Shown: positions 1 through 63,492, counted from the stretch's first letter. The stretch: DNA of 64,000 nt from Candidatus Limnocylindrales bacterium (GCA_035540555.1 DATLGJ010000020.1:58759-122758), one strand, 5' to 3'. Notes: generated by a model not told the origin, from the sequence alone. Translations and numbers: made by a program.

Positions 1-3000
1 CACGATCGATCCACCTGATCCATACGACTGCACTCGAAGTTGATCGGTCGCCGTCGATTCACTGCGCACGGCGGTGGGATCACTGACGCTGTACGTGACC
101 GTGTGGGAGAGCGCATTGTTGCCAGTGTCCCGGGGATCTGTCACGCGGTTCAGCAAGCTGCCCGACGCGTAGCTGAACTTGTGGCAGCCAGATGCCTGGC
201 CGCTTGCCGCGCAGGCGGCGCTTCGTCTTGCGGGTATCACGGTGACAAGGTTGTTGGACGCGTCTCGGGCGAAGTCCGTGTAGCGCCCCGTCGCGCCGCT
301 CAGCGCTTCGGTGAAGCGCACGGACGAGGTCCCATAAGTAACCTGCAACTGCCTAGTCGCTGTGCCGCTCGCGAGCGGCTCGCCGTCAGAGGCCGCCCGA
401 ACCGTTGCCAAGCTGATGGTCTGCGCCGAATAGTCATAAGTCCACGTGAGTCGGGTCGAGTTCCCGCTTGGGTCAGTCGAGAGCGTCATGACACCGTCGC
501 GGTTGAAGAAGCGTCGCGCTCCACCACGCTCGGTGAGTTCGAAGTCGTCAGCAACGGTCGCCGCGTACGAGGCGCCAAGGTTGGTCAGGGAGCGAAGTTG
601 GGAGGTGTCGAACAGCGCGTAGTTCCCGTCGCGCGCGATCAGGCGGAGGCCGGTCAGGTGGACAGGATCCGCAATCGGCCCCGCCCCCGGTGTCTCGGAA
701 TTGCCTCCCTCGGCATCGTTGTAGTAGCCCAGTACCTGGCGTGCGTCGTCGAGCAGGTTGCGCGTAACGACCATCCACTCCGTTGGAGCAGTCGGTGAGA
801 TCTGCAGTTGATTGGTGTACGTTCCGGGCGCAAGTGCGGGGCCGGCATAGTAGGTGATGGTCGACGAGGCGTTAGTGCGCGCGTTCTTGACGTGGAATGC
901 GAAAGCGACATGGTCGCCGCCGACCTTCTTCCATGCCCATGAAACGAACGGATGAACGATCAGGTTGTCATTTCTGCAGGCCACACAGTTAGGACTCGCA
1001 GCTTCGGATGCGGGCAGCACCTTGATTGCGCCGGTGCCGGCGTGCCGATCGGTGGTGCTCAGCGACGAGTTACCGGCATTCGCCGTCCAAGCCAAGTTGG
1101 CGTCGTTGATGATGTCGGCCTTGGTCCCCTCGAAGCGGATGGCGTCGAACTGGAGATTTCCGCTCTCCGTAGTCCCCCAGAACTTCATCGCCGTGATGCT
1201 GAAGTTGTCGTTAACGGTTCCTATCGCCTGGCTGACGGCATCGGCTCGGATGTCCCGCCCTTGAATGTGGCGCCAACTTGTGATAGACCCGCCCAGCGCG
1301 ACCTTCTTGGTCACGCCGGAGATCGCAAAATCGGTGCCCAGCGTATATGCGAGCCAGGTACTTGCGCCCGTCGTCTCGTTGACGATCTGGAAGCCGATTG
1401 CGCCCCTCGTCGCGCTGCCGGTACGGATGACAGCGAATGATCCGAGCGGGTAGTGGTCAAGGTCAATCTTCGGAAAAGCACCCGTTGATGCGCCGGTCGC
1501 ATTGTTGGCGGCGATCTGGTACACGCGCCCTCCGCTGAAGGCGGTACCGCTCGCGATCAGTGACGCCGTGCCGCTCCATCCGGTGAGCCAGTTCTCGTCG
1601 AAGATCGTGTGGCGGACCCGCTCGAGACGAACGGGGGCTGCGCTGATCAGCTGGCCACTCGGTGCGGCCGCTACCAGGTATCGATTGCCGTCCGCGTCCA
1701 CATAGATGTAGTCAGCACCCTCGACGCCCGCGCCGGAGCGGAATCCTTCGTCGAAGTTGGTCCCCCATCCGCAAGCGCGGAGAATTCCGGTGCAATCGGT
1801 GCGGTTGGCGCTGTCGTAGTAGTAGGCCAGTGACAGCAGCCCTCCGCGATCGGAGAAGCCCACGCCCCCGGCCCCGTCAAAGCGCAGGTTGCGCGACCAC
1901 AGGTTTATACCGAGCGACGATCCGTCTGGCAGCTCGACGCTGCTCGTGTCGCCGATCGCGGTACCCCCGCCCGAGACAACCGACACGCCGAAGTCGGCTC
2001 GTTCGACGACCGAAGCCCCGACCCATCGGGTGTTCGAGTCGTCAAGGCTGTACTTCTTGCGAGCGTAATAGGCGCTTGGCTTGGCCCAGTCAGATCCCCA
2101 GAGGTTGGTCCCTCCCCTGACATGGACCAGGTCGAGGCGCAATCCGAACTGGCCAACGACGGGCGGGGCATCCACTGCGACGTTGAAGATGCTGCTCGTG
2201 GCACCTGAGTTGATCGCGGTCGGCAGGTTGACTACCTTCCAACTGGTGAATCCGGAGATGGCCAGCGGGCGGCCTGCCGCGTCAAGCCAACGGTACCCAA
2301 AGGCGTAGTAGTCGTTGGGGTTGGCTCCCGACAGATTGAACGTGAAGCCAGCGTCATTGCGCACACGCACCGGTAGTGATGTGCTCTTACCAGCGACCAT
2401 CGTCGTCGGAACGAAGTTGTCGCCAAGAGCGGGATCGAAGTCGATGCCCGCGGCGGGCACCACATAACTGACAGACAGACGCGGCCGCCGGTCCAGGTTG
2501 TCGGCCCTCTGACTCGCGTACCGAACTTCGTTCTGCGACTCGGTCTGCTGTCGCACGCGAATGCCGAAGTTGGGCTGCCAGCTGGCGCGACTGCGGGTAT
2601 ACCAGCTTCGGACCATGCTGGTCACGTCTTGGGTGAGATAGCCAGACGATGCGAACACCGTGACCGGAGTGGTAGCTGATCCGGACAGAACCGACGGCTG
2701 GTTGTTCCATGTCGCTTGCATGTTCCAGCCGCTGCTGACCTGTTCGAAGTAGACCTTCTGGGTTCCGTTGCCCCAGTTGTTGTTCTGGTAGAGCTGGAGC
2801 GACGCGTCGGTAACCTGAGCGCCGTCTTCCAGGGCGAGATTCGGGAAATAGAGGAGTCCGCGCATGACGCCATAGCTCCCGCCGTCGCCGCTATCGGCGT
2901 CGGTGCCGACCCGGATTCGGTTCCAACCGGTCTGCCAGCTGTTCGGCATGCCACTCAGGACGAAGTGGTCGAGAATGTCGCCTGCGGTGTAAACGCTGCT

Positions 3001-4296
3001 GCAGCCGGTGGGCGTACCCGTCTGCCCATACTGGAGGCAGATCGTCGGATCGAGCACGACCGGATACACGCGGGCCGGATCCGCCAGCCAAGCCGGATCG
3101 ATCGTGTAGGTCAGCACGATCTCGTCGGGCCCCAGGCGGCCATCGGTCAAGTCCGGCGCCGTCGGATCCGTCGGTGATGGGGACTCAGGCGCCGCGGTGT
3201 CGAGCGGAAGGTCTGTCGGCTCTGGCTCAGTCGGTTGGGTAGTCGCGTCAGCCGCCGGGGTCTCGACCGGCGCGGTCGCGTCCGGCGCAATCGTCGGCTC
3301 CGCCGGAAGCGTCGGACCGGGCAGGATGGGCGCCAGGGTCTCGACGGTAGGGGTGGCCAGGACCGGCGACGGGGTAGGCAGGGGCGGTCGCGGCGCTGGG
3401 TCGATGCGCGTACTCAGTGTGGTGGTAACCGCTGTCTCTGGGGCGAAGCTGTCTATCGCATCGATGGCCCATGGAGGACTGACCGTTCCGGCGATCTCGC
3501 CATCGGCGTTGCGTAGCAGCACGCCGCGACCGTCAGGCGCGACCTCGGCACGCAGACCACCGGTATCGAGGATGAACTGGTAACTGTTAGCCAAGCCGGG
3601 CTCAGCCAGCGTGACGGAAAAGGCCAGCCCTTCGGGAACCGGGATTAGCGAGACTTCGCCGCTGCCCGGGCGGGCCGGGATGCGGACTTGGTCTGGCAGG
3701 GTTATCGGAGCCAGCACACCCCGGTCGACTTGGCGTAGACGAAGGGTGCCATGAGGACTCCGTATCTCTGCGAGCCGGTCGGTGTTCCCCTTGGACGAGA
3801 GGCTCACTCCGACATCGTTGGCCCGTGTCCTTTTGCCGTACTCCCCGGCCTCGTCAGTCAGGCTCAGGTCGATGGGTTGCCACTTACCTTCGCTGTCCAG
3901 GTAGTTGATGCGACCCATAAAGAATTCGGCGGTGTGGGTTCCGTCGGGCCCCACGACTACCCTGCTGTAGGCGGTCCGAAGGGCTTCATCTTCTGTCGCT
4001 GCGCGCGGCAGAGCGTCTACGCTCCGCGGCGAGCGAAGCTCTGCCCCGAGACTTGGCAGGTACCCGCGTTCACCGCCGATGACTTCAATAGGCGCGGGCG
4101 AGCGCTCAAGGAACAAAGGCACCGAGTTCTCGATGGCGGGAACGCGGGGGTCCGAGGCCGCAGCATCATCGTCTTGAAGCACGGCTATCGCAGCCGGGAC
4201 GGGTGGGCCAAGCACTGAGAGAGCGAGGACGAGCGCCAGGAGACTGGACCGCGCTCGGCCATGGCGAGCGCGCTGACTCGGAAATTGGAAGTGCAT
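1..4296 (-). CDS. Large secreted RHS/YD-repeat (WapA-like) protein, N-terminal 1432 codons. The gene runs off the window start, so the C-terminus and any toxin/immunity module lie outside.
   Basis: Manual reverse-complement translation shows an uninterrupted frame from ATG at 4296 to position 1 (codon starts are multiples of 3). No listed ORF on either strand explains the region. The N-terminus has a signal-peptide-like sequence (MHFQFPSQRARHGRARSSLLALVLALSVLGPPVPAAIA). A Pro/Thr-rich linker sits near 3200-3450. The distal part contains YD/RHS-like repeats (LTWTYDYSAQ, RVTDPRDTGN...TVTYS). The ORF track omits it because the stop is outside the window. Confidence 0.6.
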   Translation of the reverse strand, partial: MHFQFPSQRARHGRARSSLLALVLALSVLGPPVPAAIAVLQDDDAAASDPRVPAIENSVPLFLERSPAPIEVIGGERGYLPSLGAELRSPRSVDALPRAATEDEALRTAYSRVVVGPDGTHTAEFFMGRINYLDSEGKWQPIDLSLTDEAGEYGKRTRANDVGVSLSSKGNTDRLAEIRSPHGTLRLRQVDRGVLAPITLPDQVRIPARPGSGEVSLIPVPEGLAFSVTLAEPGLANSYQFILDTGGLRAEVAPDGRGVLLRNADGEIAGTVSPPWAIDAIDSFAPETAVTTTLSTRIDPAPRPPLPTPSPVLATPTVETLAPILPGPTLPAEPTIAPDATAPVETPAADATTQPTEPEPTDLPLDTAAPESPSPTDPTAPDLTDGRLGPDEIVLTYTIDPAWLADPARVYPVVLDPTICLQYGQTGTPTGCSSVYTAGDILDHFVLSGMPNSWQTGWNRIRVGTDADSGDGGSYGVMRGLLYFPNLALEDGAQVTDASLQLYQNNNWGNGTQKVYFEQVSSGWNMQATWNNQPSVLSGSATTPVTVFASSGYLTQDVTSMVRSWYTRSRASWQPNFGIRVRQQTESQNEVRYASQRADNLDRRPRLSVSYVVPAAGIDFDPALGDNFVPTTMVAGKSTSLPVRVRNDAGFTFNLSGANPNDYYAFGYRWLDAAGRPLAISGFTSWKVVNLPTAINSGATSSIFNVAVDAPPVVGQFGLRLDLVHVRGGTNLWGSDWAKPSAYYARKKYSLDDSNTRWVGASVVERADFGVSVVSGGGTAIGDTSSVELPDGSSLGINLWSRNLRFDGAGGVGFSDRGGLLSLAYYYDSANRTDCTGILRACGWGTNFDEGFRSGAGVEGADYIYVDADGNRYLVAAAPSGQLISAAPVRLERVRHTIFDENWLTGWSGTASLIASGTAFSGGRVYQIAANNATGASTGAFPKIDLDHYPLGSFAVIRTGSATRGAIGFQIVNETTGASTWLAYTLGTDFAISGVTKKVALGGSITSWRHIQGRDIRADAVSQAIGTVNDNFSITAMKFWGTTESGNLQFDAIRFEGTKADIINDANLAWTANAGNSSLSTTDRHAGTGAIKVLPASEAASPNCVACRNDNLIVHPFVSWAWKKVGGDHVAFAFHVKNARTNASSTITYYAGPALAPGTYTNQLQISPTAPTEWMVVTRNLLDDARQVLGYYNDAEGGNSETPGAGPIADPVHLTGLRLIARDGNYALFDTSQLRSLTNLGASYAATVADDFELTERGGARRFFNRDGVMTLSTDPSGNSTRLTWTYDYSAQTISLATVRAASDGEPLASGTATRQLQVTYGTSSVRFTEALSGATGRYTDFARDASNNLVTVIPARRSAACAASGQASGCHKFSYASGSLLNRVTDPRDTGNNALSHTVTYSVSDPTAVRSESTATDQLRVQSYGSGGSIV

Positions 4297-4599
4297 GTCG
4301 CTCCCTCGCACCTCGGCGCAGGCAGCACCGAGCCCCTAGCCCCCACGAATCAGCGTGCCGCCCCTCGGGCACGACGCGACGGTGGGGCCCCGCGCGGGCT
4401 GCCGCAAGCAGGGAGAACCCTATGTTCCGTCGGGGGTTTCGCCTTGAGCCCCGGCCGCTCGCGCGCTTGGGGCCGGCGTTCCTAGAAGCCTCTGGCTGCC
4501 GGCCGGCCTCTGGCGCAGTACCGCACCGGCGGCGGTTGCTCGGTTGGACTTCGCGCTCCGGCCCTGACCTGGCACCGCCTTCAACCGCCGGCCCCTACC

Positions 4600-4860
4600 T
4601 TATCGTTCAGGCGGCTCTTCGTTCGGATCCAACGCTGACAAGGGCACGCCGTACAACTTCGCGAGAAGGATAGCTTCGGCGAAGAGCAGCGACCGCCGGC
4701 CTGTTTCCAACTTGCCGATCCAGCTCTGCGGCTTGCCCACGCGCTGCGAGACCTGGACTTGGGTCAGGCCGGCCCGGCGGCGCAGTTGCGCCAGTCGGTC
4801 TGCGAGTGCCGTTCGGTCGGCAGCACTCTCAGGTGGCGGGCTGACCCGCGGCCGATTCAT
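4600..4860 (-). CDS. XRE-family helix-turn-helix transcriptional regulator (86 aa), divergent from the FtsH-like gene
   Basis: HTH_3-type motif LRRRAGLTQVQVSQRVGKPQSWIGKLETGRRSLLFAEAILLAKLYGV. A 190-bp divergent intergenic region separates it from the gene starting at 5051. Confidence 0.75.
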   Translation of the reverse strand: MNRPRVSPPPESAADRTALADRLAQLRRRAGLTQVQVSQRVGKPQSWIGKLETGRRSLLFAEAILLAKLYGVPLSALDPNEEPPER

Positions 4861-5050
4861 GGCTCACATGGTGATGCCCACATCGAAGCGCCGCACCGCA
4901 CTTTGGCGCACACCGGGGGCCAGTCGCTCACTCGCCGACAACGGCGCGCGTCACCCCTCGTGTCCGCCTTGGAGCCCGCCCTTGACAGCGCCTGCGGCTC
5001 TAGGATAGCGTCGACCGCCGTTATCCCGAATCCGAATAGGAGGCGTCAAG

Positions 5051-6484
5051 GTGAGTGCCGACAAGTCACGGCCGGACGAGATAGATCAGCTCCTGGCCGA
5101 TGCGCTGTACCAGGGACCGAGCGTCACTGCCGACCAGCTGGTAGGTGTCGATGCCTGTCTGCGCCAACTGGCCGGTCAGCTGACGCTGCTTGAGCGACCC
5201 GAGCTAGGCGTGCGACTTGGCATCCAACCATCTGGTTCGCTGTTTCTCGGCCCGCCCGGCACGGGCAAGACATTGCTCGCGCGGTTTCTGGCCGGGCAAC
5301 TGGGCGTTCCTATGTACCAACTGAGCGCCGATCAGTTCGGCGATGATCCGGCTCAACTTCATCGCATCTTCGGGCGCCTGAGCCGCCAGCGCGCCGTTCT
5401 CTTCATCGACGAGATCTCCATCCTCTGCCAGCGTCGCGACTGGTCGAGCGCCGAGGAGAGGCGCATGCTCGCAGCCCTGCTGACCGAGCTTGATGGACTT
5501 TCCAGCCTTGCGGCAGGAGAGCGCCTTTGGGTCATCGGGGCGTGTACGCCCGATATCCACCTCGATCCTGCCATTCATCGCTCGGGTCGCCTGGGGGTAA
5601 CGGTCGAGTTCGCCCTGCCGTCGGTGGAACATCGAGCCCAGTTGCTGCGCCTGTATCTGGCGGCTGTTCCGAACGCGCTGTCGGAAGAGGACATTGCCAG
5701 GCTAGCCGAGATGTCAGGCGGGGTCAGCGGGGCCGATGTTCGTGACTACATCAACCAGGCGGCCAGCCTGGTCCTGGCTGAGGCGGTGGATGTGGCCGAT
5801 CCTGTCATCGAGTATCGACACCTCGAGATCGTCTTCGGCCGGCGTGGATTCGTTGCCGCCGAGGGCCGGCCGGGACGCGAGCCGGACTGGGAGACTGCGG
5901 TCCACGAGGCCGGCCATGCCGTCATCGCATATGTCCTGTTTGGCCGCCCTGCGCTTGCGCAAGTCACGATCGGCTTTGGCCCGGTCGGCCGGCGTCGTAT
6001 GCCGACGAGAGGCCACTTCTCCGTATCGGATGATTGGGCCGAGAAGAACCACCCGACGTCGCTCAGCTGGAGCGACCATGTAGCGGTCAAGCTCGCCGGG
6101 GTCTGTGCCGAGGAACTGATTCTCGGTTACCGCGGCTCGGGCGCCTCGAGCGACATCGCTGCTGCCACCTCGCTCATCCTCGACCAGTTCGATCAAGGCG
6201 ACCCCTCATTCGGCCCCTCCCGGACCGAGATGGAGGGCGGCCCGGGCGCACGCATCGGGGGGGCCGGCTCCGAAGCCATGCGCGCCACCGCGTGGCATCT
6301 GGTCCGATCGCGATTTGGAGAATGCTGGTCCCGAACAGGCAGCTTGGTGAGCGAGCACAGATATGCCATCGAGCGGCTGGCCTCCGCCTTGCTCGAGAGC
6401 AAGAGTCGCCTGACTGGCGACGAGATCGTCGAGGTGCTCGACACCGGCGTGGTCGCAACCGGCGCTTCTGGCGCGGCAGCGTAG
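5051..6484 (+). CDS. Soluble (transmembrane-less) FtsH-like AAA+ ATPase fused to an M41 zinc-metallopeptidase domain
   Basis: Walker A GPPGTGKT and Walker B LFIDEI. AAA second region of homology TPDIHLDPAIHRSGRLG. HEAGHAV (HEXXH) plus downstream GASSDI motif typical of FtsH peptidase M41. The N-terminus has no hydrophobic TM segment. GGAGG RBS 7 nt before the GTG start. Confidence 0.8.
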   Translation: MSADKSRPDEIDQLLADALYQGPSVTADQLVGVDACLRQLAGQLTLLERPELGVRLGIQPSGSLFLGPPGTGKTLLARFLAGQLGVPMYQLSADQFGDDPAQLHRIFGRLSRQRAVLFIDEISILCQRRDWSSAEERRMLAALLTELDGLSSLAAGERLWVIGACTPDIHLDPAIHRSGRLGVTVEFALPSVEHRAQLLRLYLAAVPNALSEEDIARLAEMSGGVSGADVRDYINQAASLVLAEAVDVADPVIEYRHLEIVFGRRGFVAAEGRPGREPDWETAVHEAGHAVIAYVLFGRPALAQVTIGFGPVGRRRMPTRGHFSVSDDWAEKNHPTSLSWSDHVAVKLAGVCAEELILGYRGSGASSDIAAATSLILDQFDQGDPSFGPSRTEMEGGPGARIGGAGSEAMRATAWHLVRSRFGECWSRTGSLVSEHRYAIERLASALLESKSRLTGDEIVEVLDTGVVATGASGAAA

Positions 6485-6670
6485 GCTGCCGCGATCTCTC
6501 GCCGGCTCCACAGTCCTGTACCTGGAGAGGCGTCACGAGAGAGGCGCACAGCGAATCGCGAAAGGGGGTTGACTCCCCTAAAGACCTGCCTACAGAAGGC
6601 CCCGACGCCGTTGGATCGGTCGGGATCGACCCGCACCGCCAGCGGCTCGCAAGGCTTTAGGAGGTAGAGA

Positions 6671-9430
6671 TTGCTGACCGAGCGAGGCTTTGAGCTCTGG
6701 GGCGCGAGGCTGCAACTCGCGGACCCCGTGCGTCGGCTGATCGCTGACGTCCGGAGCGCTCCCCCAGCGCGCCGAGTCGGCAGCCGTCGGCGCAATGTCT
6801 CGGGCCGCTACCCAAGCCGCAAGATGGGGCTGACCATCCAGTTCGAGTCGCACACCAGTGAGTTGGTGGGCATCTACTCCTACGAACATGACTCGCGTGT
6901 GGTCGAGTACTACGACCAACCCGCCCTCAGCGCGAAGCTCAACTATGTGCGAGGAGACGGGCGACGCGTCAGCTACGCCGTAACGCCCGATTTCCTCGTT
7001 CTTGAGCGCGACGGCGCTTTCCTCGACGAGTGGAAGACGGAGACAGAGCTGGTCCGGCTTGCGGCCAAAGATCCCGCGTTGTACACCAAGGAGGATGGCG
7101 CTTGGCGCTCGCCTCCGCGAGAGGAGGCAACTGAGCGGCTAGGCCTCAGTTTCCGGCTGCGGACGCGCGACAGCGTCGGCGACATCCTCGACCGCAATCT
7201 GCGGTTTCTTGATGACTACTTGCGTGCCGCGGTTGAGCCGGACCCAGCGCTCGCAGCCGCACTGACCGAGGCGGTCAGCACGGATCCCGGGATCAGCGCC
7301 GGGGAACTGTTGAGCGCGCTCATGCGCGAGGGTGCCGCCGATTGTCTATACGCGCTCATCGCCGGTGGGCAGCTATTCGTAGATCTGGCGACACAGCCGC
7401 TGGCTGAGCCATTCCATGCCGCGGTCTATCCGAGTGCCGAGCTGGCCGCGTCCCTGAGGAGTCCGGAACAACCAATCGGCACGTTGGTGCAACTGACGTC
7501 CGGCACCAGGCTGGAATGGGATGGTCGGCCGTGGGACGTGGTAAACCCGGGACCCGAAGGCGTAAGCCTTCGCGATGCGGCCGGTCAGCTGGTCACCCTC
7601 GACAACCACGAGTTCCAGTCACGGCTGCAAAACGCCAGCATCCGAGAGCTACCGCATTCTCAGGCCGAGGCGCTGCCGCCGGAAGGCGCGGCGCTGCTGC
7701 GGGCAGCCAGTCCTAAAGACCTTGACCTGGCAAATCAACGCTATCGCCAGATCGTCAGTCCGAATGACGACGAGAGCGCTCTGTCACCGCGTTCGCTCGC
7801 GCGCCTGCGCAGAAGCTACCGCGAAGCGCAGTTGCGGTACGGGTGCGGCTTCATCGGGCTGCTGCCCCAGCCCAGAAAGGGCAACAAGACTCGGAAGCGC
7901 GAGGCCCAGGTACTAGGTGTGATCGAAGAGCAGATCAGCACGTTCTATAGAAGCAAAGACGCGCCGGGAAAGACCGCGCTCTACGGGCTGGTCGTGGAGC
8001 ATTGTCAGCGCCTCGGCTTGGAGCCGCCCTCGTACAAGACCGTCAGCAAGGCTCTGCACGCTCATGACGCTCATACCGTCCAAGGTGATCGAGAGGGCCA
8101 GAAGGTCGCCTACGGCAGCGAGCAGTTCTACTGGCACCTCGACGCGAGCACACCTCGCCATGGTGACCGGCCCTGGGAAATCGGCCACGCGGACCACACT
8201 AAGCTGGACATCGAGCTGGTCTGCTCAAAGACGGGCACAAACCTCGGTCGTCCATGGCTATCACTGCTCGTCGACGCTCACAGTCGCCGCGTCCTGGCCT
8301 TCTGGCTGACGTTTGACCCGCCGAGCTATCGCTCGCTGATGATGCTCGTGCGGCGCTGCGTTGCGCTACACAGCCGCCTGCCCGAGACCATCGTCGTTGA
8401 TGGCGGTGCAGAGTTCGGCAGCATCTACTTCGAAACCTTGCTGGCCGCTTTCGAGATCACCAAGAAGGTGCGCCCTGGCGCTCCGCGGTTCGGCTCGGTC
8501 TGCGAGCGCCTCTTTGGCATGGCCGACGAGCGCCTGATCCACAACCTGCGCGGGAATACCAAGCTCATGCGCAACGTGCGCACCGTCACCGCCGAGGTGA
8601 CCCCAAGCAAGCGGGCGGTATGGGATCTGTGGTCACTCGACAACGCGCTCGGCGAGTGGTTTCACGAGGTCTACGACGGCCTCGATCATCCCAGCCTTGG
8701 GCAGAGCCCTCGCGATACCTACAACGCGCGCATCGAGCTCAGCGGCACACGCCCGCAGCGCTGGGTCGCCGACGACGAAACCTTTCGCATGCTGACCCTT
8801 CCGAGCACCCAGAAGGGCACAGTCAAAGTAGATCCTTCCCGCGGCGTTAAGGTCAACTACATCAACTACTGGAACCCGCGCTTTCGCGATCCCGCTCTCG
8901 GGCGCCGCGACCTTCCTGTCCGCTATGACCCGATCGATGTCCGCCACGCATTCGTCTTCGCCGATGGCGACTGGATCGAGTGCGAGTCGCAAGAGCTGCG
9001 TTCGCTGCCCCAGATCTCGGAACGCGAGTTGCGCTTCGCCACCGCCGAATTACTCCAGCGCAGACGCAATGTCGAGCGCCGTCGACCGTTGACTGCTCGG
9101 GACATAGCGGTCTTCCTAAAGCAGCAGAAGGACAACGAGAACTTGCTCCTTTTGCGATTGCGCGACTTCGCGCAACGCGAGGTGTTGGCTCCGCACCGTG
9201 CCAATCAGCTTCTTGGGTGGGGCGCGCCAGCGCCGTTTGAAGCCGATGCCATGGCACCGCCGACGGCGCTGGAGGTGGTCGACCAGCCAGATGCAGCAGC
9301 GTCCTCAGAGCCGCCCGAGCAAGAGATATCGGCTTCCGTGGTGATCGCGGGGGAGACCAACGACCATCACGAGCCCCAAGACAGTCAGGCAGTGTTCGGT
9401 GAGTACACCCTCCTGATGGAGCTCAGCTGA
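6671..9430 (+). CDS. tnsAB: Tn7-like transposase, a TnsA-like endonuclease domain fused to TnsB (DDE, Mu/rve-type) = TnsAB
   Basis: The N-terminal ~190 aa carry PD-(D/E)xK TnsA motifs (ESHTSELVGIYSYEHD...QP...YAVTPDFLVLERDGAFLDEWKTE; compare Tn7 TnsA TDFLV/QVK). The rest has a Mu-type DDE core (HADHTKLDIELV ... TIVVDGGAEFGS ... SVCERLFG). TTG start with AGGAGG RBS. The stop abuts the tnsC start at 9432. Confidence 0.8.
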   Translation: MLTERGFELWGARLQLADPVRRLIADVRSAPPARRVGSRRRNVSGRYPSRKMGLTIQFESHTSELVGIYSYEHDSRVVEYYDQPALSAKLNYVRGDGRRVSYAVTPDFLVLERDGAFLDEWKTETELVRLAAKDPALYTKEDGAWRSPPREEATERLGLSFRLRTRDSVGDILDRNLRFLDDYLRAAVEPDPALAAALTEAVSTDPGISAGELLSALMREGAADCLYALIAGGQLFVDLATQPLAEPFHAAVYPSAELAASLRSPEQPIGTLVQLTSGTRLEWDGRPWDVVNPGPEGVSLRDAAGQLVTLDNHEFQSRLQNASIRELPHSQAEALPPEGAALLRAASPKDLDLANQRYRQIVSPNDDESALSPRSLARLRRSYREAQLRYGCGFIGLLPQPRKGNKTRKREAQVLGVIEEQISTFYRSKDAPGKTALYGLVVEHCQRLGLEPPSYKTVSKALHAHDAHTVQGDREGQKVAYGSEQFYWHLDASTPRHGDRPWEIGHADHTKLDIELVCSKTGTNLGRPWLSLLVDAHSRRVLAFWLTFDPPSYRSLMMLVRRCVALHSRLPETIVVDGGAEFGSIYFETLLAAFEITKKVRPGAPRFGSVCERLFGMADERLIHNLRGNTKLMRNVRTVTAEVTPSKRAVWDLWSLDNALGEWFHEVYDGLDHPSLGQSPRDTYNARIELSGTRPQRWVADDETFRMLTLPSTQKGTVKVDPSRGVKVNYINYWNPRFRDPALGRRDLPVRYDPIDVRHAFVFADGDWIECESQELRSLPQISERELRFATAELLQRRRNVERRRPLTARDIAVFLKQQKDNENLLLLRLRDFAQREVLAPHRANQLLGWGAPAPFEADAMAPPTALEVVDQPDAAASSEPPEQEISASVVIAGETNDHHEPQDSQAVFGEYTLLMELS

Positions 9431-9431
9431 C

Positions 9432-10520
9432 ATGGACGCAGATCAGCGGCGCGAGGCGCTCTCAGGCTTTAAGCGGTATGTCGTGGCCCACCCCAACCTG
9501 GTCGATACCGTAGCAACAGTGAATGGCTCCATCATGGAGCCGGCGGGTGCCGCGGTGACGATGCTCTACGGTCCGACCGGTGTGGGCAAGAGCACGGTCG
9601 TCCGGGCGGTCATGACCGAGGCGAACCGCGAGCTCATGCCTGAACTTGCCGCCGATCCAGGCAAGTTCGGTGTCATCAAGCTCGATGCTCCCGCGCCGAC
9701 AGGCGGGAGTTTCAGCTGGAAACAGTTCTTCATCAAGTTGCTCGTGGCTCTTGGTGAGCCGATCGCGGATGCGCGCCTCGAGCGCCCCGGAAGAGCGGTT
9801 GGCCAGCGGCTCCGCAGCGGCGAAGAAGCGCGCAGTCAGGCCGAGCAGGCATTGGCACAGCGGCGGCCGAAAGCTGTGCTGATCGACGAGGCAACGCATA
9901 TCGCCAACTTGGTGTCGGGTGAGCGGCTCCTCAACCAGCTCGACCTATTGAAGTCGCTGGCCGACAGCACGGGCACTCACTTCGTGCTCGTCGGTACATA
10001 CGACCTGCTTGCCTTTCGCAACCTGAGCGGTCAGCTCGGCCGGCGAACTCAGGACGTGCACTTTCAGCGTTACCTGCCGAACGAAGGGGATATGGGCAAG
10101 TTCCAAACGGTCGTCCGCTCCTTCGGCCGAGCGCTCCCGGTCGACGCGGTCGACCTGACCGAGCATTTCGAGTTTCTGTATGAACGTTCACTTGGCTGCG
10201 TCGGCATGCTGCGCGACTGGCTGACACGGGCACTCAACAGTGCCCTGGCCCTCGAACGGCCGTTCCTCTCCGCGGACCTGCTTCGCGCCAATGCCTTGCC
10301 CATGGGAGCGCTCATGGCCGCCGCAGAAGAGATCAGCTACGGCGAGGCAAAGCTGGCCGACGCTGAGCGCGACCAGTTGCGCCTGCGCGAACTGCTCGGC
10401 ATCGCTCCATCCCAGGGAGCGGCAGCTCTCGAGCCCGCAGCGCCCCGCCTCCGCGCCGGCGTCACTGGCCGCGTCGGCACGCGCCAGCCAAGCCGCGATC
10501 CTGTCGGCGTCGAGACATGA
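9432..10520 (+). CDS. tnsC: TnsC-like AAA+ transposition regulator
   Basis: Walker A GPTGVGKST and Walker B VLIDEAT. It occupies the TnsC/TniB position between the transposase and tniQ. Its stop overlaps the tniQ start (ATGA). Confidence 0.75.
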   Translation: MDADQRREALSGFKRYVVAHPNLVDTVATVNGSIMEPAGAAVTMLYGPTGVGKSTVVRAVMTEANRELMPELAADPGKFGVIKLDAPAPTGGSFSWKQFFIKLLVALGEPIADARLERPGRAVGQRLRSGEEARSQAEQALAQRRPKAVLIDEATHIANLVSGERLLNQLDLLKSLADSTGTHFVLVGTYDLLAFRNLSGQLGRRTQDVHFQRYLPNEGDMGKFQTVVRSFGRALPVDAVDLTEHFEFLYERSLGCVGMLRDWLTRALNSALALERPFLSADLLRANALPMGALMAAAEEISYGEAKLADAERDQLRLRELLGIAPSQGAAALEPAAPRLRAGVTGRVGTRQPSRDPVGVET

Positions 10521-11851
10521 ATGAGCAGTTCGCATTGGTCGCCGATCAGTCCGTGTTAGGACCGCGAAGCCGCCTTCATCGCTTGGAGCCTCAAGGTCTG
10601 GGCACTCCTGGTGTCGAGGCGATGACCAGCTACCTGCTCCGGCTGGCCGCAAGCCATGCGTTACCCGTGGGAAGCCTGGCCGTGGATCTGGTCGGGCCGG
10701 AACTCGGGCGCACTCGCGTCTATGGCGAGGCGCGCACCGATCGCTCCAGCTTCTTCAACTCCTCCATTTACCGAGGGCCGCAGGCCATCAACGGAGTTGG
10801 CGATTACGGCGAATTGTGGCTGGGAGCGATTCAGCGCTTGGTGCTGCGCGATGACCTAGCGCCCTTGAGCATGGTGTCCTGGCGAAGAGCGCTTTCGGCC
10901 CGCGGTCTACTGCGCGATCACTTGGCAGCGTGCGCCCATTGCCTGCACGAAGCAGCGGTCGCGGGGCGGACGATCCATGAGCCCCTGCTCTGGTCAATCG
11001 CGCAGGTGACCACGTGTCCGCTGCACGGTTGCCAGCTTCTACAGAGCTGTCCGCACTGCGCGACGCGCTCGCCACTCTTGGGCTGGGACGCCCAGGTGGG
11101 TCATTGCCGGCGATGTGGCAGCTGGCTAGGAAGCAGCATCTGTGACGAACAGCCTGGGAGCGAATGGGAGAGCTGGATATCGGCCAGCGTTGGCCGACTT
11201 CTTGAGTTGCCGCTCGAGCGACGGATCGCTGGCGGAACAATGGCTCGAGCCATCACGCAGGCGGTAGCCCGCAGCACCAATGGCAACGCTGCCGCCTTTG
11301 CCCGCGCGATCGGGCGCTCCAAGAGCCTGGTGACCGAATGGCGCCAGGGCCGAGCCGCGCCAACGCTCGAGTCACTGCTTCGCATCGCGGCATACGCGCG
11401 CCTGGACTTTGTGGCACTCGTGCGTGGCTCAGCCGTCGCTGACCCGGAGCCGCCGGCCCGATCGACATTGGGCGCCTGGGCCAGGGAAGTTAAGAGCGCG
11501 CGCGACTGGGGCGTGGTCGAGAGCCAACTGGAAGCGGCCCTAGCACTCGATCCACCGCAATCCTTCGCGGCGCTGTGTAGAGATTTACGCCTTGATGCTC
11601 AATCTGTTCGCGAGCGCTTTCCCGCTCTGGCGGGCCAGCTTGTGTCAAGGCGCCGCCGGTGGTCAGAGCATCAGAGGAACGAGCGATGCGAGGTGTTAGC
11701 CGGAGCGGTCCACGCGGCCGTCGTGGCAATCTGCGAGGTCGGCGAGCATCCCAGTCGTCGACGGGTCGAGGCGCTTCTTCCGACCGGCGCATCTCTTCGC
11801 GAGGACGCTCTTCGCACCGCCTGGCGCGAGTCGATCGCCACTCATCAGTAG
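10517..11851 (+). CDS. tniQ: TniQ/TnsD-family target-site selector
   Basis: N-terminal TniQ-like motif TSYLLRLAASHALPVGSLAV. Cys/His zinc-finger cluster (CAHCLHE...CPLHGC...CPHCATR...CRRCG). C-terminal XRE-like HTH (ARAIGRSKSLVTEWRQGRAAPTLESLLRIAAYARL). Confidence 0.7.
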   Translation: MNEQFALVADQSVLGPRSRLHRLEPQGLGTPGVEAMTSYLLRLAASHALPVGSLAVDLVGPELGRTRVYGEARTDRSSFFNSSIYRGPQAINGVGDYGELWLGAIQRLVLRDDLAPLSMVSWRRALSARGLLRDHLAACAHCLHEAAVAGRTIHEPLLWSIAQVTTCPLHGCQLLQSCPHCATRSPLLGWDAQVGHCRRCGSWLGSSICDEQPGSEWESWISASVGRLLELPLERRIAGGTMARAITQAVARSTNGNAAAFARAIGRSKSLVTEWRQGRAAPTLESLLRIAAYARLDFVALVRGSAVADPEPPARSTLGAWAREVKSARDWGVVESQLEAALALDPPQSFAALCRDLRLDAQSVRERFPALAGQLVSRRRRWSEHQRNERCEVLAGAVHAAVVAICEVGEHPSRRRVEALLPTGASLREDALRTAWRESIATHQ

Positions 11852-11949
11852 GGGGCGTCGCTGTCTCTCAGCTGCAAACACGCTAACCCGGTCCGCGCCC
11901 AATGCCGCTCCAGCACTGGTTGGTCAACAACAGAGGCCATGCTGGTTAT

Positions 11950-12312
11950 CTAGATCGCATAGTTGCGATACGACCCCCGTCCGTAGTCGTAAAGCGAGAT
12001 GCTGGAACCCGAGACCGTCCCAGAGAAGTGCGACGAAGTGCCGTAGTCGTAGCCCTCAAACCGATCCCCGGCGATCTTGAGTGCAACGTGATGACCGCGG
12101 CCGTAGTGGTACAGACTCAGGTTAGGCCGACTGCCTGACCCGCCGAAGTAGCATCCCGTGTCGTAGTCGTAGACGTTGACGGTTGTGGACGTCACTTCGC
12201 CGCTGATGCTGCGGTATTGGCCGAGGTCGTAGTCGTACACGGCGCTGGCAACCTTGCCTGTGATCAGTCGGGCAGCGACGTAGCCGACGAGGGCCGCAAC
12301 GTCATCGTGCAT
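11950..12312 (-). CDS. Small hypothetical protein (120 aa) built from five ~20-aa tandem repeats with an aromatic Y-D/H-Y-D/G core
   Basis: Sequence ...VYDYDLGQYRSISGEVTSTT / VNVYDYDTGCYFGGSGSRPN / LSLYHYGRGHHVALKIAGDR / FEGYDYGTSSHFSGTVSGSS / ISLYDYGRGSYRNYAI. Composition is not Arg/Ala-spurious. GGAG about 12 nt upstream of the ATG. It is the last gene before the transposon end and is transcribed inward from that end. Confidence 0.45.
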   Translation of the reverse strand: MHDDVAALVGYVAARLITGKVASAVYDYDLGQYRSISGEVTSTTVNVYDYDTGCYFGGSGSRPNLSLYHYGRGHHVALKIAGDRFEGYDYGTSSHFSGTVSGSSISLYDYGRGSYRNYAI

Positions 12313-12413
12313 CGTGACTCACATCTCCAAGCGACGTGCCGTATGCGCGAGCGTAGCAATGCCGCGGGATGGCGCGTCATAGGCGGGCTTAACACATGGC
12401 CGCGCCGGCTCGC

Positions 12414-12609
12414 TGGAAGCTTGGGCCGGCCGGACGTCCATCGGATCAGCTCGCGCCGAACGTGAGCCGGCGAGGTTCAGACGAGCGCCTCCAGTGGAAG
12501 CATCAGCTGGCACTTTGTCAGAACCGGTCGATTCTGAGCGTGACTACTTGCGTCGTCGCGAAAGTGGAAGCATGTGCTGTCCGTTGTCGACTGGAAGCAT
12601 GAGCTGTCC
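12414..12609 (+). repeat. Four direct repeats of a ~18-bp core TGGAAGCAT(C/G)(A/T)GCTG(G/T)CC, putative TnsB-binding sites of the transposon end. Copies at 12414 (degenerate), 12495, 12565 and 12592.
   Basis: Found by reading directly: ccagTGGAAGCATCAGCTGGCac (12495-12513), aaagTGGAAGCATGTGCTGTCC (12565-12582), gacTGGAAGCATGAGCTGTCC (12592-12609), gcTGGAAGCttgggcc (12414-). All point the same way toward the terminus. This is a gene-free, lower-GC segment. Confidence 0.55.
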
Positions 12610-12665
12610 AAAAGTGCCAACTTATGGTTCCAATCACAGGCCCGCCGAGGGCGTGCGCAAGATCG

Positions 12666-13039
12666 TGGTGGAGATGGGGGAGGGTCGAACTCCCCGTCCA
12701 AGGCGTTCAGCCGGAGACCAGCTACGAGCGTAGTCGATGCTTTGTCGTCAATCGGTCAGGCCGCCATCGACAGCGTCCCGCCCGATCCATCCACGCTCCC
12801 TTGCGGGCTTTGCGATCAGTCACGTGGCCTCGCCGATCGCGCATCCCCGCTGATTGACGCTTCCACAGCCCGCGGGGATGAGGCTGCTTCCACGTTCACC
12901 TAGCTGCTGTTAGGCAGCGAGGGGAAGAGAAGTCTGGCGGTTGCCAGTTACTTCGTTTTGCCGCCTTTTTCCGAGGCCAGAGCGGCATCCTCGACTCGCG
13001 TTCTCCGGGGATCCGGCCCTGTCGAAACCACTCATCCCC
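12666..13039 (-). ncRNA. ssrA: tmRNA (transfer-messenger RNA), 374 nt
   Basis: Minus-strand 5' end GGGGATGAGTGGTTTCGACAGGG (compare E. coli GGGGCUGAUUCUGGAUUCGACGGG). 3' end GGACGGGGAGTTCGACCCTCCCCCATCTCCACCA with T-arm GGGGAG/TTCGACC/CTCCCC. The acceptor CATCTCC pairs with 5' GGGGATG, including a G3-U wobble. Internal ...GGCCTCGGAAAAAGGCGGCAAAACGAAGTAACT GGC AAC CGC CAG ACT TCT CTT CCC CTC GCT GCC TAA gives a predicted tag GNRQTSLPLAA. smpB is immediately upstream. Confidence 0.7.
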
Positions 13040-13134
13040 AGACCACTAATCCTAGCATCCGAACGCCTGTTCTGGAAAGGGGTTCCGGGGAATGAGGGAG
13101 TGGACGCATCTGGCCCTGTGGTGGCGCGGCTCGC

Positions 13135-13596
13135 TCAGCGCCCGCGCTGGGCGTCGGCCATCTCGCGCTCGACCTCGCGGCGCATGTCCCGCTCCGCGAT
13201 GGAGCGTCTTTTGTCGTGGAGCTGCTTTCCGCGTGCGAGCCCCAGCTCCAGCTTGGCGCGTCCCCTGTCATTGATGTAGAGCCTCAGGGGCACGACCGTC
13301 AGACCCTTGGCCGACGCACGGCCGAGCAACTGGTCAATCTCGGCACGGTGGAGCAGCAACTTGCGATCCCGGCGCGGCTCGTGGTTCCACCGATTGCCGG
13401 CTTCGTACGGCGCGATGTGGGCGCCGATAAGCCACGCCTCGCCCTTCTCCACGCGGGCGTAGGCATCAGCCAGGTTGGCCTTGCCCGCTCGAATGCTCTT
13501 GATCTCCGTGCCGGTCAGGACGATGCCGGCCTCGAAGGTGTCGCTGATCTGGTACTCATGGCGGGCTCTGCGGTTGACCGCCACCGTCTCGGACAT
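13135..13596 (-). CDS. smpB: SsrA-binding protein SmpB
   Basis: [17 protein letters not shown]...[13 protein letters not shown]...[20 protein letters not shown]. Start taken at the internal Met; the track ORF extends 28 codons further upstream. Confidence 0.85.
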
Positions 13597-15253: not shown

Positions 15254-16358
15254 TCAGGCTGCCTCGTCGGTAGCCAGGCGCTCCAGCTCCGCCAGCATGA
15301 AGCCGTCGAGGTCGCCGTCCAGGACGTCGCCCGTGCTGCTGGTTTCGTGCTCGGTGCGGTGGTCCTTGACCATCTGGTAGGGGTGCAGAACGTAGGAGCG
15401 GATCTGGTTGCCCCAACCGGCTTCGACGTGATCACCCTTGATCGCCGCCAGCTCTCGTTCGCGCTCCTCCAGCTTCCGTTCCAGCAGGCGGGCCCTGAGC
15501 ACCTTCATCGCAACGTCACGGTTCTGGTGCTGGGAGCGCTCGTTCTGGCTCTGCGCCACGATGCCCGTCGGCAGGTGCGTGATGCGGACCGCCGAGTCGG
15601 TCTTGTTGACGTGCTGTCCGCCCGCCCCCTGCGCTCGGAATGTGTCGACCTTGAGCTCGTCCTCCGGGATCTCGCCGACTTCGACGTCATCTTCGACCTC
15701 GGGCAGCACCTCGACCAGGGCGAACGTCGTATGGCGCCGCTTCTGGGAGTCGTACGGGCTGATCCGAACGAGGCGGTGAACGCCGCGCTCAGCGCGAAGG
15801 TGGCCGTAGGCGTTGCGTCCCTCGACGGCAAAGGTCGCGCTTTTCAGGCCCGCCTCCTCCCCCTCCAACTGGTCGAGGATCTCCGTGCCGAAGCGATGGC
15901 GTTCGGCCCAGCGCAGGTACATCCGCAGGAGCATGGCGGCCCAGTCGGTCGCCTCTGTGCCACCGGCCCCCGCGCTGATCGAGACGATCGCGCTGCGCTC
16001 GTCGTATGGCCCGTTGAACATCAGGCTCATGCGCTGGCGCTCAAACTCGGCGCGGAGCGCGACGTGCTCGGCCGAAAGGCCTGTCAGCATCTCCTGGTCG
16101 CCGGAATCGCCGGCCAGCTCTGCCAGCTCGACCAGATCGTCGGCGCGCTGCACCAGTGAGCGCCAGACCCCGATCTCCTCGCGCAGGCTCTCGGCCGTGC
16201 GCAGCACCTGCTGGGCGTTGCGTTGGTCCGACCAGAAATCGGCCGCGCTGGCCTGCTCGTCGAGGTCGGCCAGCCGCTCTTCGCGAGCAGCTAGGTCAAA
16301 GGCGCCCCGAGGTCGCGTGGATGCGCTCGGCCAGGGCGCGCAGCTCTCCTATATCCAA
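15254..16358 (-). CDS. prfB: Peptide chain release factor 2, requires a +1 programmed frameshift at CTT TGA C (16301-16295)
   Basis: Frame-0 leader from TTG at 16358 (RBS AGAGGAA) encodes (M)DIGELRALAERIHATSGRL then stop. The +1 frame continues DLAAREERLADLDEQASAADFWSDQRNAQQVLRTAESLREE... and includes GGQ. SD-like GGGG lies 3 nt upstream of CTT. Confidence 0.85.
16295..16308 (-). other. prfB autoregulatory +1 frameshift site (GGGG CGC CTT TGA C)
   Basis: Read directly from the reverse complement of 16295-16308. Matches the canonical RF2 recoding cassette. Confidence 0.8.
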
Positions 16359-16374: not shown

Positions 16375-16662
16375 CTAGTTTCTCGAGCGCACTTCCTGGA
16401 GCAGGATCGGCCGCAGCTCGATGATGCGCAGCGCGGTCTTGCTCCGTGCGACGACGGGGTTCACGCAGGGACAGTATCCGTTGTGCGGGCAAACGCCGCA
16501 GTTTCCATCACAGTCGAGCGACGCGGCGTAGCTGCAGGTGCGGCACTCTCGCTCGCAGGCGATAAGGTCTACGAACGACAATGCGGCGCGTGCCTCTTCC
16601 GCCGCCGGGTTGGGCTTCACGGCAACCGAGACTCCCTCTCTGACCCGGACCACCCTTGGCAC
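16375..16662 (-). CDS. Small cysteine-rich hypothetical protein (8 Cys: CERECRTC...CDGNCGVCPHNGYCPC), possible metal-binding or zinc-ribbon protein
   Basis: Composition is unlike the Arg/Ala-rich spurious ORFs on the opposite strand. The stop is 17 nt before the prfB start. No family recognised. Confidence 0.3.
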   Translation of the reverse strand: MPRVVRVREGVSVAVKPNPAAEEARAALSFVDLIACERECRTCSYAASLDCDGNCGVCPHNGYCPCVNPVVARSKTALRIIELRPILLQEVRSRN

Positions 16663-62289: not shown

Positions 62290-63492
62290 TTAGTCCTCAT
62301 GTACGCTGGTGTCAATGGCTAAGTTGACTTCGAGCGACAGCTCCAGGCTGAGCCTGTTGTCCTTGTCGCGGAGCGTCACGCCTGCCGCTGAGGCACGCTC
62401 GTGCAGTGCGTCCACGGCCTGCCGTCCGAGCGCATAGCGAGCGGTCCAAGCCTCCCCGGACGCCGCGCGCGCCGCGTCCTGCTCGGTGATCATTGACTGA
62501 AGTGCCTCTGGTAGTCCGGAAGATGTCTTTTCCGGGGGGGCCGGAGAGGCGTCAAACGGCACAGGAAGGGACCGAACCGTTGCCTCCATGCGAGCGTCAG
62601 TCCAGTTGAGACGAAGCGCGACTTCCGCGGGCACTTTCGCGAGGTAGGCTTCGAGGGCGTCGTCGATCAACCTGAAAAGTTGTGTTTCCACCTCGCGGTT
62701 CAGCCTGCGGTCAGGACCCACTGACTCGAATCGAACCGGCACACCCGATCTGCGCTGGCGCTCGGCAGCGGCCCGACGCAGGGTGGGAACAAGACCGAGG
62801 TCGTCGAGGACCATCGGACGTACTTCGAAAATGAAGCTCTTGGTTGCCTCGAGGGCGTGCTGAACCATGCCGCGCAGAGCGGCCAGCTCGCGCTGAGCTG
62901 CGACCGGATCGCCCGCCAGCAGGCGTTGCACAACCTCTGCCTGGAGCGCGATGTTGGCGATGCTCTGAGCAGGGCCGTCGTGCATCTGCCGGGCAATCGC
63001 CCGACGCATCTCCTCCTGGGCGTTGAGGACCGCGTTCGATTGGGAGCGGCCAGGGAGCGCGCCGCCATCGGAAGTCAGCGGCGGGCTCGCTTCGCGTGTG
63101 GCAGGGCTTGCGAGGTCCGCCACGCCCGCCGACTCGAGCGCGTGCAGCACCTCGGACAGGCTGGACTCGAGCCGCTGGAGCACCTTTTGCTTTCCCTCGA
63201 GGACCTCCATCTGCGAGCTCATGAGCGCGCTGCGCTGGTACTGGAGGATGAGCGCCGCGTGTGCCTCGCGGAGTTCCGCCGGCACCGAGTGCTGGTCCAT
63301 GAGCGCCTTGAACCGCTCGTCCGCCGCTTCGCGCCTTGCCGCGTGCCGATCGGCTTCGATGCGGGCCTGGCGCATCAGCAGGTCGATCTCCTCGAGCTCC
63401 CGGCGCGACGCCGCCTCCCTCGCCGCAAGCACCTCGGCCAGCCTGCCCCCGTCACTGGCCACGCCGATCAGTCCTCTGGGATCCGGATCCAA
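62290..63492 (-). CDS. Cytoplasmic sensor histidine kinase (HisKA_3 / NarX-type)
   Basis: H-box ARQMHDGPAQ, HATPase region, N-terminal coiled coil, no TM segments. Confidence 0.8.
   Translation of the reverse strand: MDPDPRGLIGVASDGGRLAEVLAAREAASRRELEEIDLLMRQARIEADRHAARREAADERFKALMDQHSVPAELREAHAALILQYQRSALMSSQMEVLEGKQKVLQRLESSLSEVLHALESAGVADLASPATREASPPLTSDGGALPGRSQSNAVLNAQEEMRRAIARQMHDGPAQSIANIALQAEVVQRLLAGDPVAAQRELAALRGMVQHALEATKSFIFEVRPMVLDDLGLVPTLRRAAAERQRRSGVPVRFESVGPDRRLNREVETQLFRLIDDALEAYLAKVPAEVALRLNWTDARMEATVRSLPVPFDASPAPPEKTSSGLPEALQSMITEQDAARAASGEAWTARYALGRQAVDALHERASAAGVTLRDKDNRLSLELSLEVNLAIDTSVHED

Follow-up and report, generated by a model that had tools for sequence, protein, structure and literature searches.

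Positions 12490-12638 of the DNA analyzed here, a 64-kb window from a metagenome-assembled genome (MAG) of Candidatus Limnocylindrales (Chloroflexota), represent, with a probability of about 0.85, the left end, proximal to the target, of a Tn7-like transposon which belongs to the fused TnsA-TnsB clade and was guided by its TniQ protein to ssrA, the gene of the transfer-messenger RNA (tmRNA). The gene set of this element and the architecture of its end are shown here, the latter recurring in four loci at an offset of 27 or 28 nucleotides (nt) from the tmRNA gene, and sequence comparison indicates that this transposon group very likely uses the tmRNA gene for docking. From the same data, we infer that TniQ reads the DNA of ssrA, that the element is presently mobile and that the pentanucleotide GGCCC has been duplicated upon insertion. 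Throughout, coordinates without a further label are positions in the 64-kb window, L followed by a number denotes a comparison locus or contig, and P0002 and P0008 are homologous proteins.

Genes known to serve as attachment sites for Tn7-type elements include glmS, several tRNA genes, comM, guaC, yciA, ffs and rsmJ. The ssrA gene, which is single-copy and near-universal in bacteria, would join these conserved genes. Neither ssrA nor tmRNA is mentioned in this role in the main surveys of the field, their supplementary tables aside (Benler 2021; Faure 2023; Hsieh and Peters 2022/23; the 2024 Annual Review; the 2025 Mobile DNA paper), so that a listing in these tables is possible.

The transposon end and its transposition genes

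In the window, ssrA (12666-13039, minus strand) is intact and its 3′ CCA lies at 12666, as stated in the original prediction (ARAGORN; Rfam, 122 bits). The adjoining gene-free stretch (12313-12665) has, as also claimed, a lower GC content (0.62 versus 0.67 for the window). When followed inward on the minus strand from 12638, the target-proximal (left, "A-type") end at 12490-12638 begins with TGTGAT, followed by a terminal site and three inner sites in the opposite orientation. These putative TnsAB-binding sites, which share the motif TGGAAGCAT..GCTG.C., are the terminal site TGGAACCATAAGTTGGCA (12615-12632, minus strand) and, on the plus strand, inner site 1, TGGAAGCATGAGCTGTCC (12592-12609), inner site 2, TGGAAGCATGTGCTGTCC (12565-12582), and inner site 3, TGGAAGCATCAGCTGGCA (12495-12512). 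A weight matrix made solely from sites of other loci, with which ~128,000 window positions were scored, placed exactly these four at the top, in the order 12615(-), 12592(+), 12495(+) and 12565(+), with scores of 28.0, 25.3, 25.3 and 21.9, respectively. All four fall within 140 bp. Similarly, the 64-kb window contains four exact copies of TGGAASCAT, all of them between 12495 and 12632, for a chance expectation of 0.37, and none of 100 shuffles reached four occurrences.

This array had first been described as four copies in the same orientation. Three of them stand (12495, 12565 and 12592), whereas the copy at 12414 (TGGAAGCTTGGGCCGGCC, 12414-12431, plus strand) is marginal, with three mismatches in 15, a matrix rank of 8 and a score of 10.5 which resembles random hits, compared with 22-28 for the four sites. 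It also has no counterpart in the related locus L004, whose similarity to the window begins at 12495, and appears as a doubtful fifth site, either degenerate or a chance match. A fourth true copy had gone unrecognized within the terminal sequence quoted at the time, TGTGATTGGAACCATAAGTTGG, in which it lies inverted (12615-12632, minus strand). Hence, the end is composed not of four direct repeats but of one terminal site and three inner sites of opposite orientation. The possibility that the inverted terminal site betrays two abutting elements was considered and dropped, since a left end with sites in both orientations is, along with a 5-bp duplication, a published trait of the fused-TnsAB clade (PMC9881144).

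Directly outward of the terminal site, the sequence ATCACA (12633-12638) constitutes the terminus. Its ...ACA at 12636-12638 had been correctly proposed and is backed by comparison with three other loci, while the distance to the tmRNA gene, initially given as ~27-45 bp, can be set at exactly 27 nt (12639-12665). The first five nucleotides of the host spacer, GGCCC (12639-12643), are predicted to be one copy of the target-site duplication.

The location of the junction also bears on whether the region could be a classical genomic island inserted by a tyrosine recombinase. ssrA is well known as an integration site for such islands and was reportedly described as such by Williams in 2002 (cited in PMC11837452). 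In the window, ssrA is complete, its 3′ 30-mer has no second copy in the 64 kb, the junction lies 27 nt outside the gene and no integrase was called among the genes between ssrA and a large Rhs gene located upstream of the transposition genes. With neither an integrase called in this stretch nor a duplicated 3′ segment of ssrA in the window, this explanation is almost certainly wrong.

The terminal site and the neighboring inner site form together an imperfect palindrome. This feature, along with another palindrome between the sites (12518-12537) and with solitary 52-bp pairs found between housekeeping genes in L007, L015 and L009, would fit repeats that are a regulatory operator array or a repetitive extragenic palindromic (REP)-like sequence, serving for instance ssrA termination or the small divergent gene next to the end. 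Such a role appears extremely unlikely: the same site family bounds complete elements with 5-bp duplications, the sites end in TGT/ACA, the hairpin which the terminal palindrome could form is not unusually stable (z = -1.06) and, in locus L014, the ssrA terminator hairpin sits in the spacer, outside the repeats. As to the palindrome between inner sites 3 and 2, it is near-perfect (TCAGAAYCG-NN-CGATTCTGA), is conserved in L004 (18004-18023) and may be bound by a host factor or a regulator.

The end sits 640 bp downstream of an intact tnsAB-tnsC-tniQ operon, whose three reading frames are all on the plus strand and run toward ssrA. TnsAB (6671-9430), a fused TnsA-TnsB transposase of 919 amino acids, contains the TnsA-like N (PF08722), rve (PF00665) and Mu-transpos_C (PF09299) Pfam domains and matches PDB chain 9bw1_M over residues 6-839 (E = 1.6e-209). 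It retains all columns which are invariant across 12 homologues, residues of catalytic type among them, including D508, D577 and E612 and residues of the TnsA-like part. TnsC (9432-10520), an AAA+ adaptor ATPase of 362 amino acids (Pfam AAA_22 and TniB), is homologous to the TnsC of PDB entries 8fcu, 8v32 and 9bw1 (E = 5e-71). The last gene encodes a TnsD-like TniQ target selector of 444 amino acids (10517-11851; Pfam TniQ PF06527, 6.5e-14, residues 27-174), which aligns over its full length with the TnsD chain of 8v32/9bw1 (residues 13-438 against 18-455, E = 6e-54) and has two conserved Cys/His zinc-binding motifs. The identification of the repeats as a transposon end is thus borne out by the intact operon upstream and by a complete relative, L021, which is bounded by the same site family.

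Recurrence beside other tmRNA genes and proposed mode of targeting

Close relatives of the window TniQ are very few. Among these, P0002 (55% identical) is encoded on the Joint Genome Institute (JGI) contig L004, in which the genes for an HTH protein, an FtsH-like protein, TnsAB, TnsC and TniQ are followed by 7 kb of unrelated cargo, the end, the tmRNA gene, smpB, ctpB and a release-factor gene. The two ends are 87.5% identical over 144 nt, with the same 70/27/23 site spacing, and the host sequences are close (SmpB, 90%; tmRNA, 93.5%; CtpB, 77%), whereas identity is lower within the element (TnsAB, 68%; TnsC, 70%; TniQ, 55%). The 27-nt spacer matches at 11 of 27 positions, between flanks conserved on both sides. 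The tmRNA gene of L004 (18152-18522) was missed by ARAGORN and detected with Rfam (146 bits); a negative ARAGORN result for tmRNA is therefore unreliable in these lineages. L004 also contains, 1.4 kb inside its end, a lone degenerate innermost site with its flank (16538-16569), 87.5% identical to 12492-12523 of the window, which may be the remnant of an earlier end.

Two further loci show the same arrangement. L014 came from a pattern scan of metagenome contigs, a set to which the contigs of the window and of L004 did not belong and in which seven of the 13 matches were due to chance; a pattern scan of viral contigs gave no matches. Its tmRNA gene, clipped by the contig start, ends at 242 and is followed by a 27-nt spacer, by TGTGGTTGGAACCATAAGTTGGCC from 270 and by two inverted inner sites. 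This contig, from a lower-GC organism, carries at least 14.7 kb of cargo including thermolysin-like peptidases and a kinase. L023, which was found through P0008 (TnsAB, 45% identical), contains tnsAB, tnsC, an intact tniQ, the end, a 28-nt spacer, the tmRNA gene, smpB and a ribosomal-protein cluster. The arrangement of L033 is the same as that of the window locus/L001.

Across the window, L004, L014 and L023, the terminus is therefore located 27, 27, 27 and 28 nt past the CCA, respectively, with spacers that are unrelated. The four tmRNA genes are only 37-55% identical pairwise, except for the window/L004 pair (93.5%), cargo and host neighborhoods differ and, to the right of this terminus, the four loci have no sequence in common but the 3′ end of the tmRNA gene. 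Such a fixed offset, despite unrelated spacers and tmRNA genes as divergent as 37-55%, cannot be explained by shared descent alone, and the proposal that ssrA is the attachment site is now carried by four loci. It could be objected that TniQ reads something else nearby, or that another factor guides the insertion and the proximity of ssrA is incidental, as the TniQ proteins of the window and L023 are just ~30% identical. This is very unlikely considering that the tmRNA 3′ end is all that the loci share beyond the terminus, that the genes beyond ssrA-smpB differ (ctpB and a release-factor gene in the window, a ribosomal-protein cluster in L023) and that the offset agrees with the tRNA homing measured for members of the clade (PMC10293859).

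Transposons of the fused-TnsAB clade reside mostly at tRNA attachment sites, which are read by a TnsD-like protein, and more than 99% of their insertions have the left end beside the target (PMC9881144). The original prediction had regarded as an oddity that the end far from tnsA faces the target gene; given this published trait, such an orientation is normal for the clade (PMC9881144). For the CRISPR-associated transposon (CAST) CyCAST, TnsD homing leads to insertion 30-33 nt past the tRNA end (PMC10293859), compared with 27 nt plus the CCA, that is 30 nt, in the window. Moreover, a conserved motif located 40-50 bp from the left end, in the region of the tRNA T-arm, is thought to be read by TnsD (PMC11837452), and the T-arm of the tmRNA (GGAGTTCGACCC) is found at the same 40-50 bp from the left end.

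A mechanism can be proposed for the ssrA element from its homology with PmcCAST, McCAST and CyCAST and their tRNA-homing pathway. The 444-residue TnsD-like TniQ would bind the DNA of the 3′ tRNA-like domain of ssrA, comprising the T-arm and the acceptor, and nucleate a TnsC ring. The latter would recruit TnsAB already bound to the site arrays at both ends, and TnsAB would perform a cut-and-paste insertion ~30 bp past the end of the acceptor stem (27 nt from the encoded CCA), which would orient the left end toward ssrA and leave the gene intact. The interpretation of ssrA as the attachment site is well supported, and the system would work exactly like its tRNA-homing relatives.

The closest parallel with structural data is PmcCAST, which is targeted to tRNA-Val and whose TnsABCD transpososome (type I-B2) is, judging from chain names and citing papers, the complex deposited as 8v32/9bw1. 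Both systems have a fused TnsAB, TnsC and a TnsD of ~450 residues, which are full-length homologues, and insert downstream of a tRNA-type 3′ end. Unlike PmcCAST, the window element is found at a tmRNA gene and not at a tRNA gene, in a member of the Chloroflexota and not in a cyanobacterium, and its readable part has no second small TniQ, Cascade genes or CRISPR array. Type I-D CASTs (McCAST and CyCAST) and cyanobacterial fused-TnsAB elements inserted at tRNA-Leu, tRNA-Val and tRNA-Ala likewise direct their left end to the target and belong to a clade with a 5-bp duplication. They differ from the window element by their target, whereas the latter also seems to carry its cargo largely on the tnsAB side and has an HTH and FtsH-like protease module before tnsAB. 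With prototypic Tn7 (TnsABC+D), which inserts at attTn7 downstream of glmS, the element shares a TnsD-family protein devoted, in its own case by prediction, to the conserved 3′ end of an essential gene, a fixed and short landing distance that leaves the gene unharmed, TGT...ACA ends and arrayed TnsB sites, to which the predicted 5-bp duplication would be added. In contrast, TnsA and TnsB are separate proteins in Tn7, its right, tnsA-proximal end faces glmS, the sites of each end have a single orientation and the target is protein-coding. Finally, array-targeting cyanobacterial Tn7-like elements belong to the same clade, and their preference is derived from a tRNA-targeting TnsD through the motif 40-50 bp from the left end, which the new target has in common with tRNA genes (PMC11837452). 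A change of tRNA genes for the tRNA-like end of tmRNA, as proposed here, would be parallel to this shift. Their own TnsD lost a C-terminal region and they land in CRISPR spacers, whereas the TniQ of the window aligns up to residue 438 of 444.

A somewhat better than even case can be made that one sub-group of TnsD-like selectors of the fused-TnsAB clade, or two which arose independently, exchanged tRNA genes for the tRNA-like 3′ domain of the tmRNA gene, and that ssrA is an undescribed Tn7-type safe-harbor site. Nature would then provide an example of a TnsD selector that reads a tRNA-like domain outside a tRNA gene, with a bearing on target switching comparable to that from tRNA genes to CRISPR repeats. 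If this holds true, a working TnsAB/TnsC/TniQ set with ssrA specificity could serve for site-specific integration in Chloroflexota and perhaps more widely, as a tool of use in poorly tractable phyla. The variable island beside ssrA in Limnocylindrales genomes would also be explained without an integrase, and genome-island finders keyed to integrases will miss such islands.

Distal end and mobility of the element

Several observations weigh against the interpretation of the locus as a TniQ-guided insertion at ssrA. No distal (direct-repeat) end was found in positions 1-12400 of the window or in the 569 bases which L001 adds upstream, nor in the 6.1 kb upstream of tnsAB in L004 or the 10 kb in L023, while the relatives L024, L028 and L029 have a direct-repeat end just 0.2-1.2 kb upstream of tnsAB. 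In the window, the partner end was sought with the motif at up to three mismatches, with the exact 9-mer and with two weight matrices, which returned only the ssrA-proximal cluster; a lone matrix match at 62673 lies inside an open reading frame (ORF) and looks like a chance hit. No empty ssrA site was obtained from a related genome, and a single ancestral insertion could account for both the window and the L004 copies. The binding of TniQ and transposition at ssrA are themselves predictions from sequence. Furthermore, the TniQ of L023 scores 200 bits against that of the window and 253-290 bits against those of elements at guaA, on the parA side, at dnaN and at tRNA-Val, its nearest relative being the tRNA-Val TniQ of L020 (290 bits), for ~30% identity with the window TniQ. 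As the L023 protein is closer to TniQs with other targets, there is no single ssrA-specific TniQ lineage which would tie the protein to the target. These relationships suggest more than one shift to ssrA, or an old divergence.

The missing distal end can be accounted for in either of two ways: the cargo of ssrA elements is large on the tnsAB side, or the end has disappeared from them. On this side are found the Rhs gene in the window, DISARM-like helicases in L023 and an S8 peptidase in L004. The second possibility amounts to a fossil, in which the end and the genes are real and mobility has gone with the distal end, in this copy and perhaps in those of L004 and L023, the old insertion or insertions being inherited vertically. 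It would fit the lack of a distal end within 12.6 kb (plus 0.57 kb) upstream and in L004 and L023, when relatives have one within 0.2-1.2 kb of tnsAB, as well as the host synteny (smpB, ctpB and the release-factor gene) shared by the window and L004. On the other hand, the three tns frames are intact and keep the residues invariant in the family, and the end is 87.5% conserved next to a spacer that matches at 11 of 27 positions. The same offset at tmRNA genes as little as 37-55% identical requires repeated site-specific insertion, and an Rhs gene in the window versus an S8 peptidase gene in L004, both upstream of the conserved HTH gene, is what is expected for variable cargo. An immobile relic is thus unlikely, while being the strongest of the alternatives to an active, TniQ-guided transposon.

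In the NCBI assembly of the source organism, the contig begins inside tniQ (HVM29953.1, a 203-residue partial protein). Such an assembly break within the transposon would be expected if the element were present in multiple copies or polymorphic among strains.

Cargo, accessory genes and related elements

Upstream of tnsAB, the window contains an HTH regulator (4600-4860, minus strand) and a soluble FtsH-like AAA+/M41 protease devoid of membrane part (5051-6484, plus strand), which are 70% and 67% identical, respectively, to their counterparts in L004 (2913-5632). A similar AAA/M41 gene precedes tnsAB in L032 (7519-9528). This pair looks like a conserved accessory or regulatory module traveling with the tns operon in three elements of the sub-group.

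Farther upstream, positions 1-4296 (minus strand, start codon at 4296; gene call and Pfam) encode the first 1432 of the 3691 codons of an Rhs/YD-repeat protein, whose gene runs about 6.8 kb past the window start. This protein of 3691 amino acids has CBM, Laminin_G and PT-HINT domains, and the nearest homologue found, from a Chloroflexota MAG, is 50% identical. This protein probably represents toxin cargo carried on the side of tnsAB, which would necessarily place the distal end farther out. The sole gene between tniQ and the left end (11950-12312, minus strand) encodes 120 amino acids with repeated YDYD/YDYG/YHYG motifs (DNA repeat GTCGTAGTCGTAG) and matches DUF5334 below threshold only; it is not present in L004, which has 7 kb of different cargo at this place. 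On the other side of ssrA are smpB (13135-13596), ctpB and the release-factor gene.

The ORFs scanned between 3751 and 12312 correspond to the HTH protein, the AAA/M41 protease, TnsAB, TnsC, one TniQ, the small repeat protein and two proteins without Pfam match. No Cas family was found among them or in the precomputed Pfam gene calls of this region, and no CRISPR-array-like repeats were found in positions 1-13100 of the window. With no Cas genes, array or second small TniQ in the readable part of the element, nothing there indicates that it is a CAST; such a module may lie in the distal part.

The wider family, whose members have TnsAB proteins ~45% identical to that of the window, contains complete elements. 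L021, on a Caldilineaceae contig, is a 7.3-kb element with the 5-bp duplication CCGGG on both sides, bounded by TGTGACTTTACTCATAATTTGCC and direct sites on one side and by a palindromic site pair ending in ...GTCACA on the other. The end architecture seen in the window is also that of L014, L023, L021 and L020. In L013 (2970-5700), tandem non-autonomous mini-elements each have one direct-repeat and one palindromic end; one contains genes for an Mrr-like nuclease and a DnaA-like ATPase, and another, of 0.9 kb, is flanked by an AAAGC duplication. In L020, from a Chamaesiphon genome, tniQ is accompanied by the same type of end, located 31 nt from a tRNA-Val gene without encoded CCA, and other relatives are found at guaA (L026 and L027) and dnaN (L028). 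A genome scan with an alignment of two TniQs returned three relatives only, at 30% identity, and the source genome was not among the matches. TniQ varies with the target across the family, in which changes of attachment site are common.

In L028, the stop codon called for dnaN is located within the last bases of the transposon end (15330-15345), and the element seems to have replaced the last dnaN codons; no clean 5-bp duplication is readable at this locus. Defense-type genes occur upstream of tnsAB in L023 (1-9838), L028 (1-9700) and L026 (1366-8502), encoding DISARM-like helicases with an MZB domain, Prok-Ub/E2/ThiF proteins, AbiE, RES-Xre and a methyltransferase with a helicase. Those of L028 are outside its 5.6-kb element, whose direct-repeat end is 200 bp from tnsAB.

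A second end-like cluster was observed in L014, 11 kb inside the element (11313-11451), with TGTG followed by three sites in the same orientation (GGACA..TTATGCTTCCA). AT-rich DNA precedes this cluster and an HTH-IrrE (M78) gene follows it, and it may belong to a nested or older element. Finally, the solitary palindromic pairs of ~52 bp (TGTGATTGGAATCATGAGTTGGCC-GCGG-inverted copy), each composed of two sites of the terminal type, are located at 1348-1394 in L007, 98-144 in L015 and 860-906 in L009. They sit between housekeeping genes such as maf, NAD kinase and a tlyA-like gene, and may be remnants of ends or minimal derivatives resembling miniature inverted-repeat transposable elements (MITEs).

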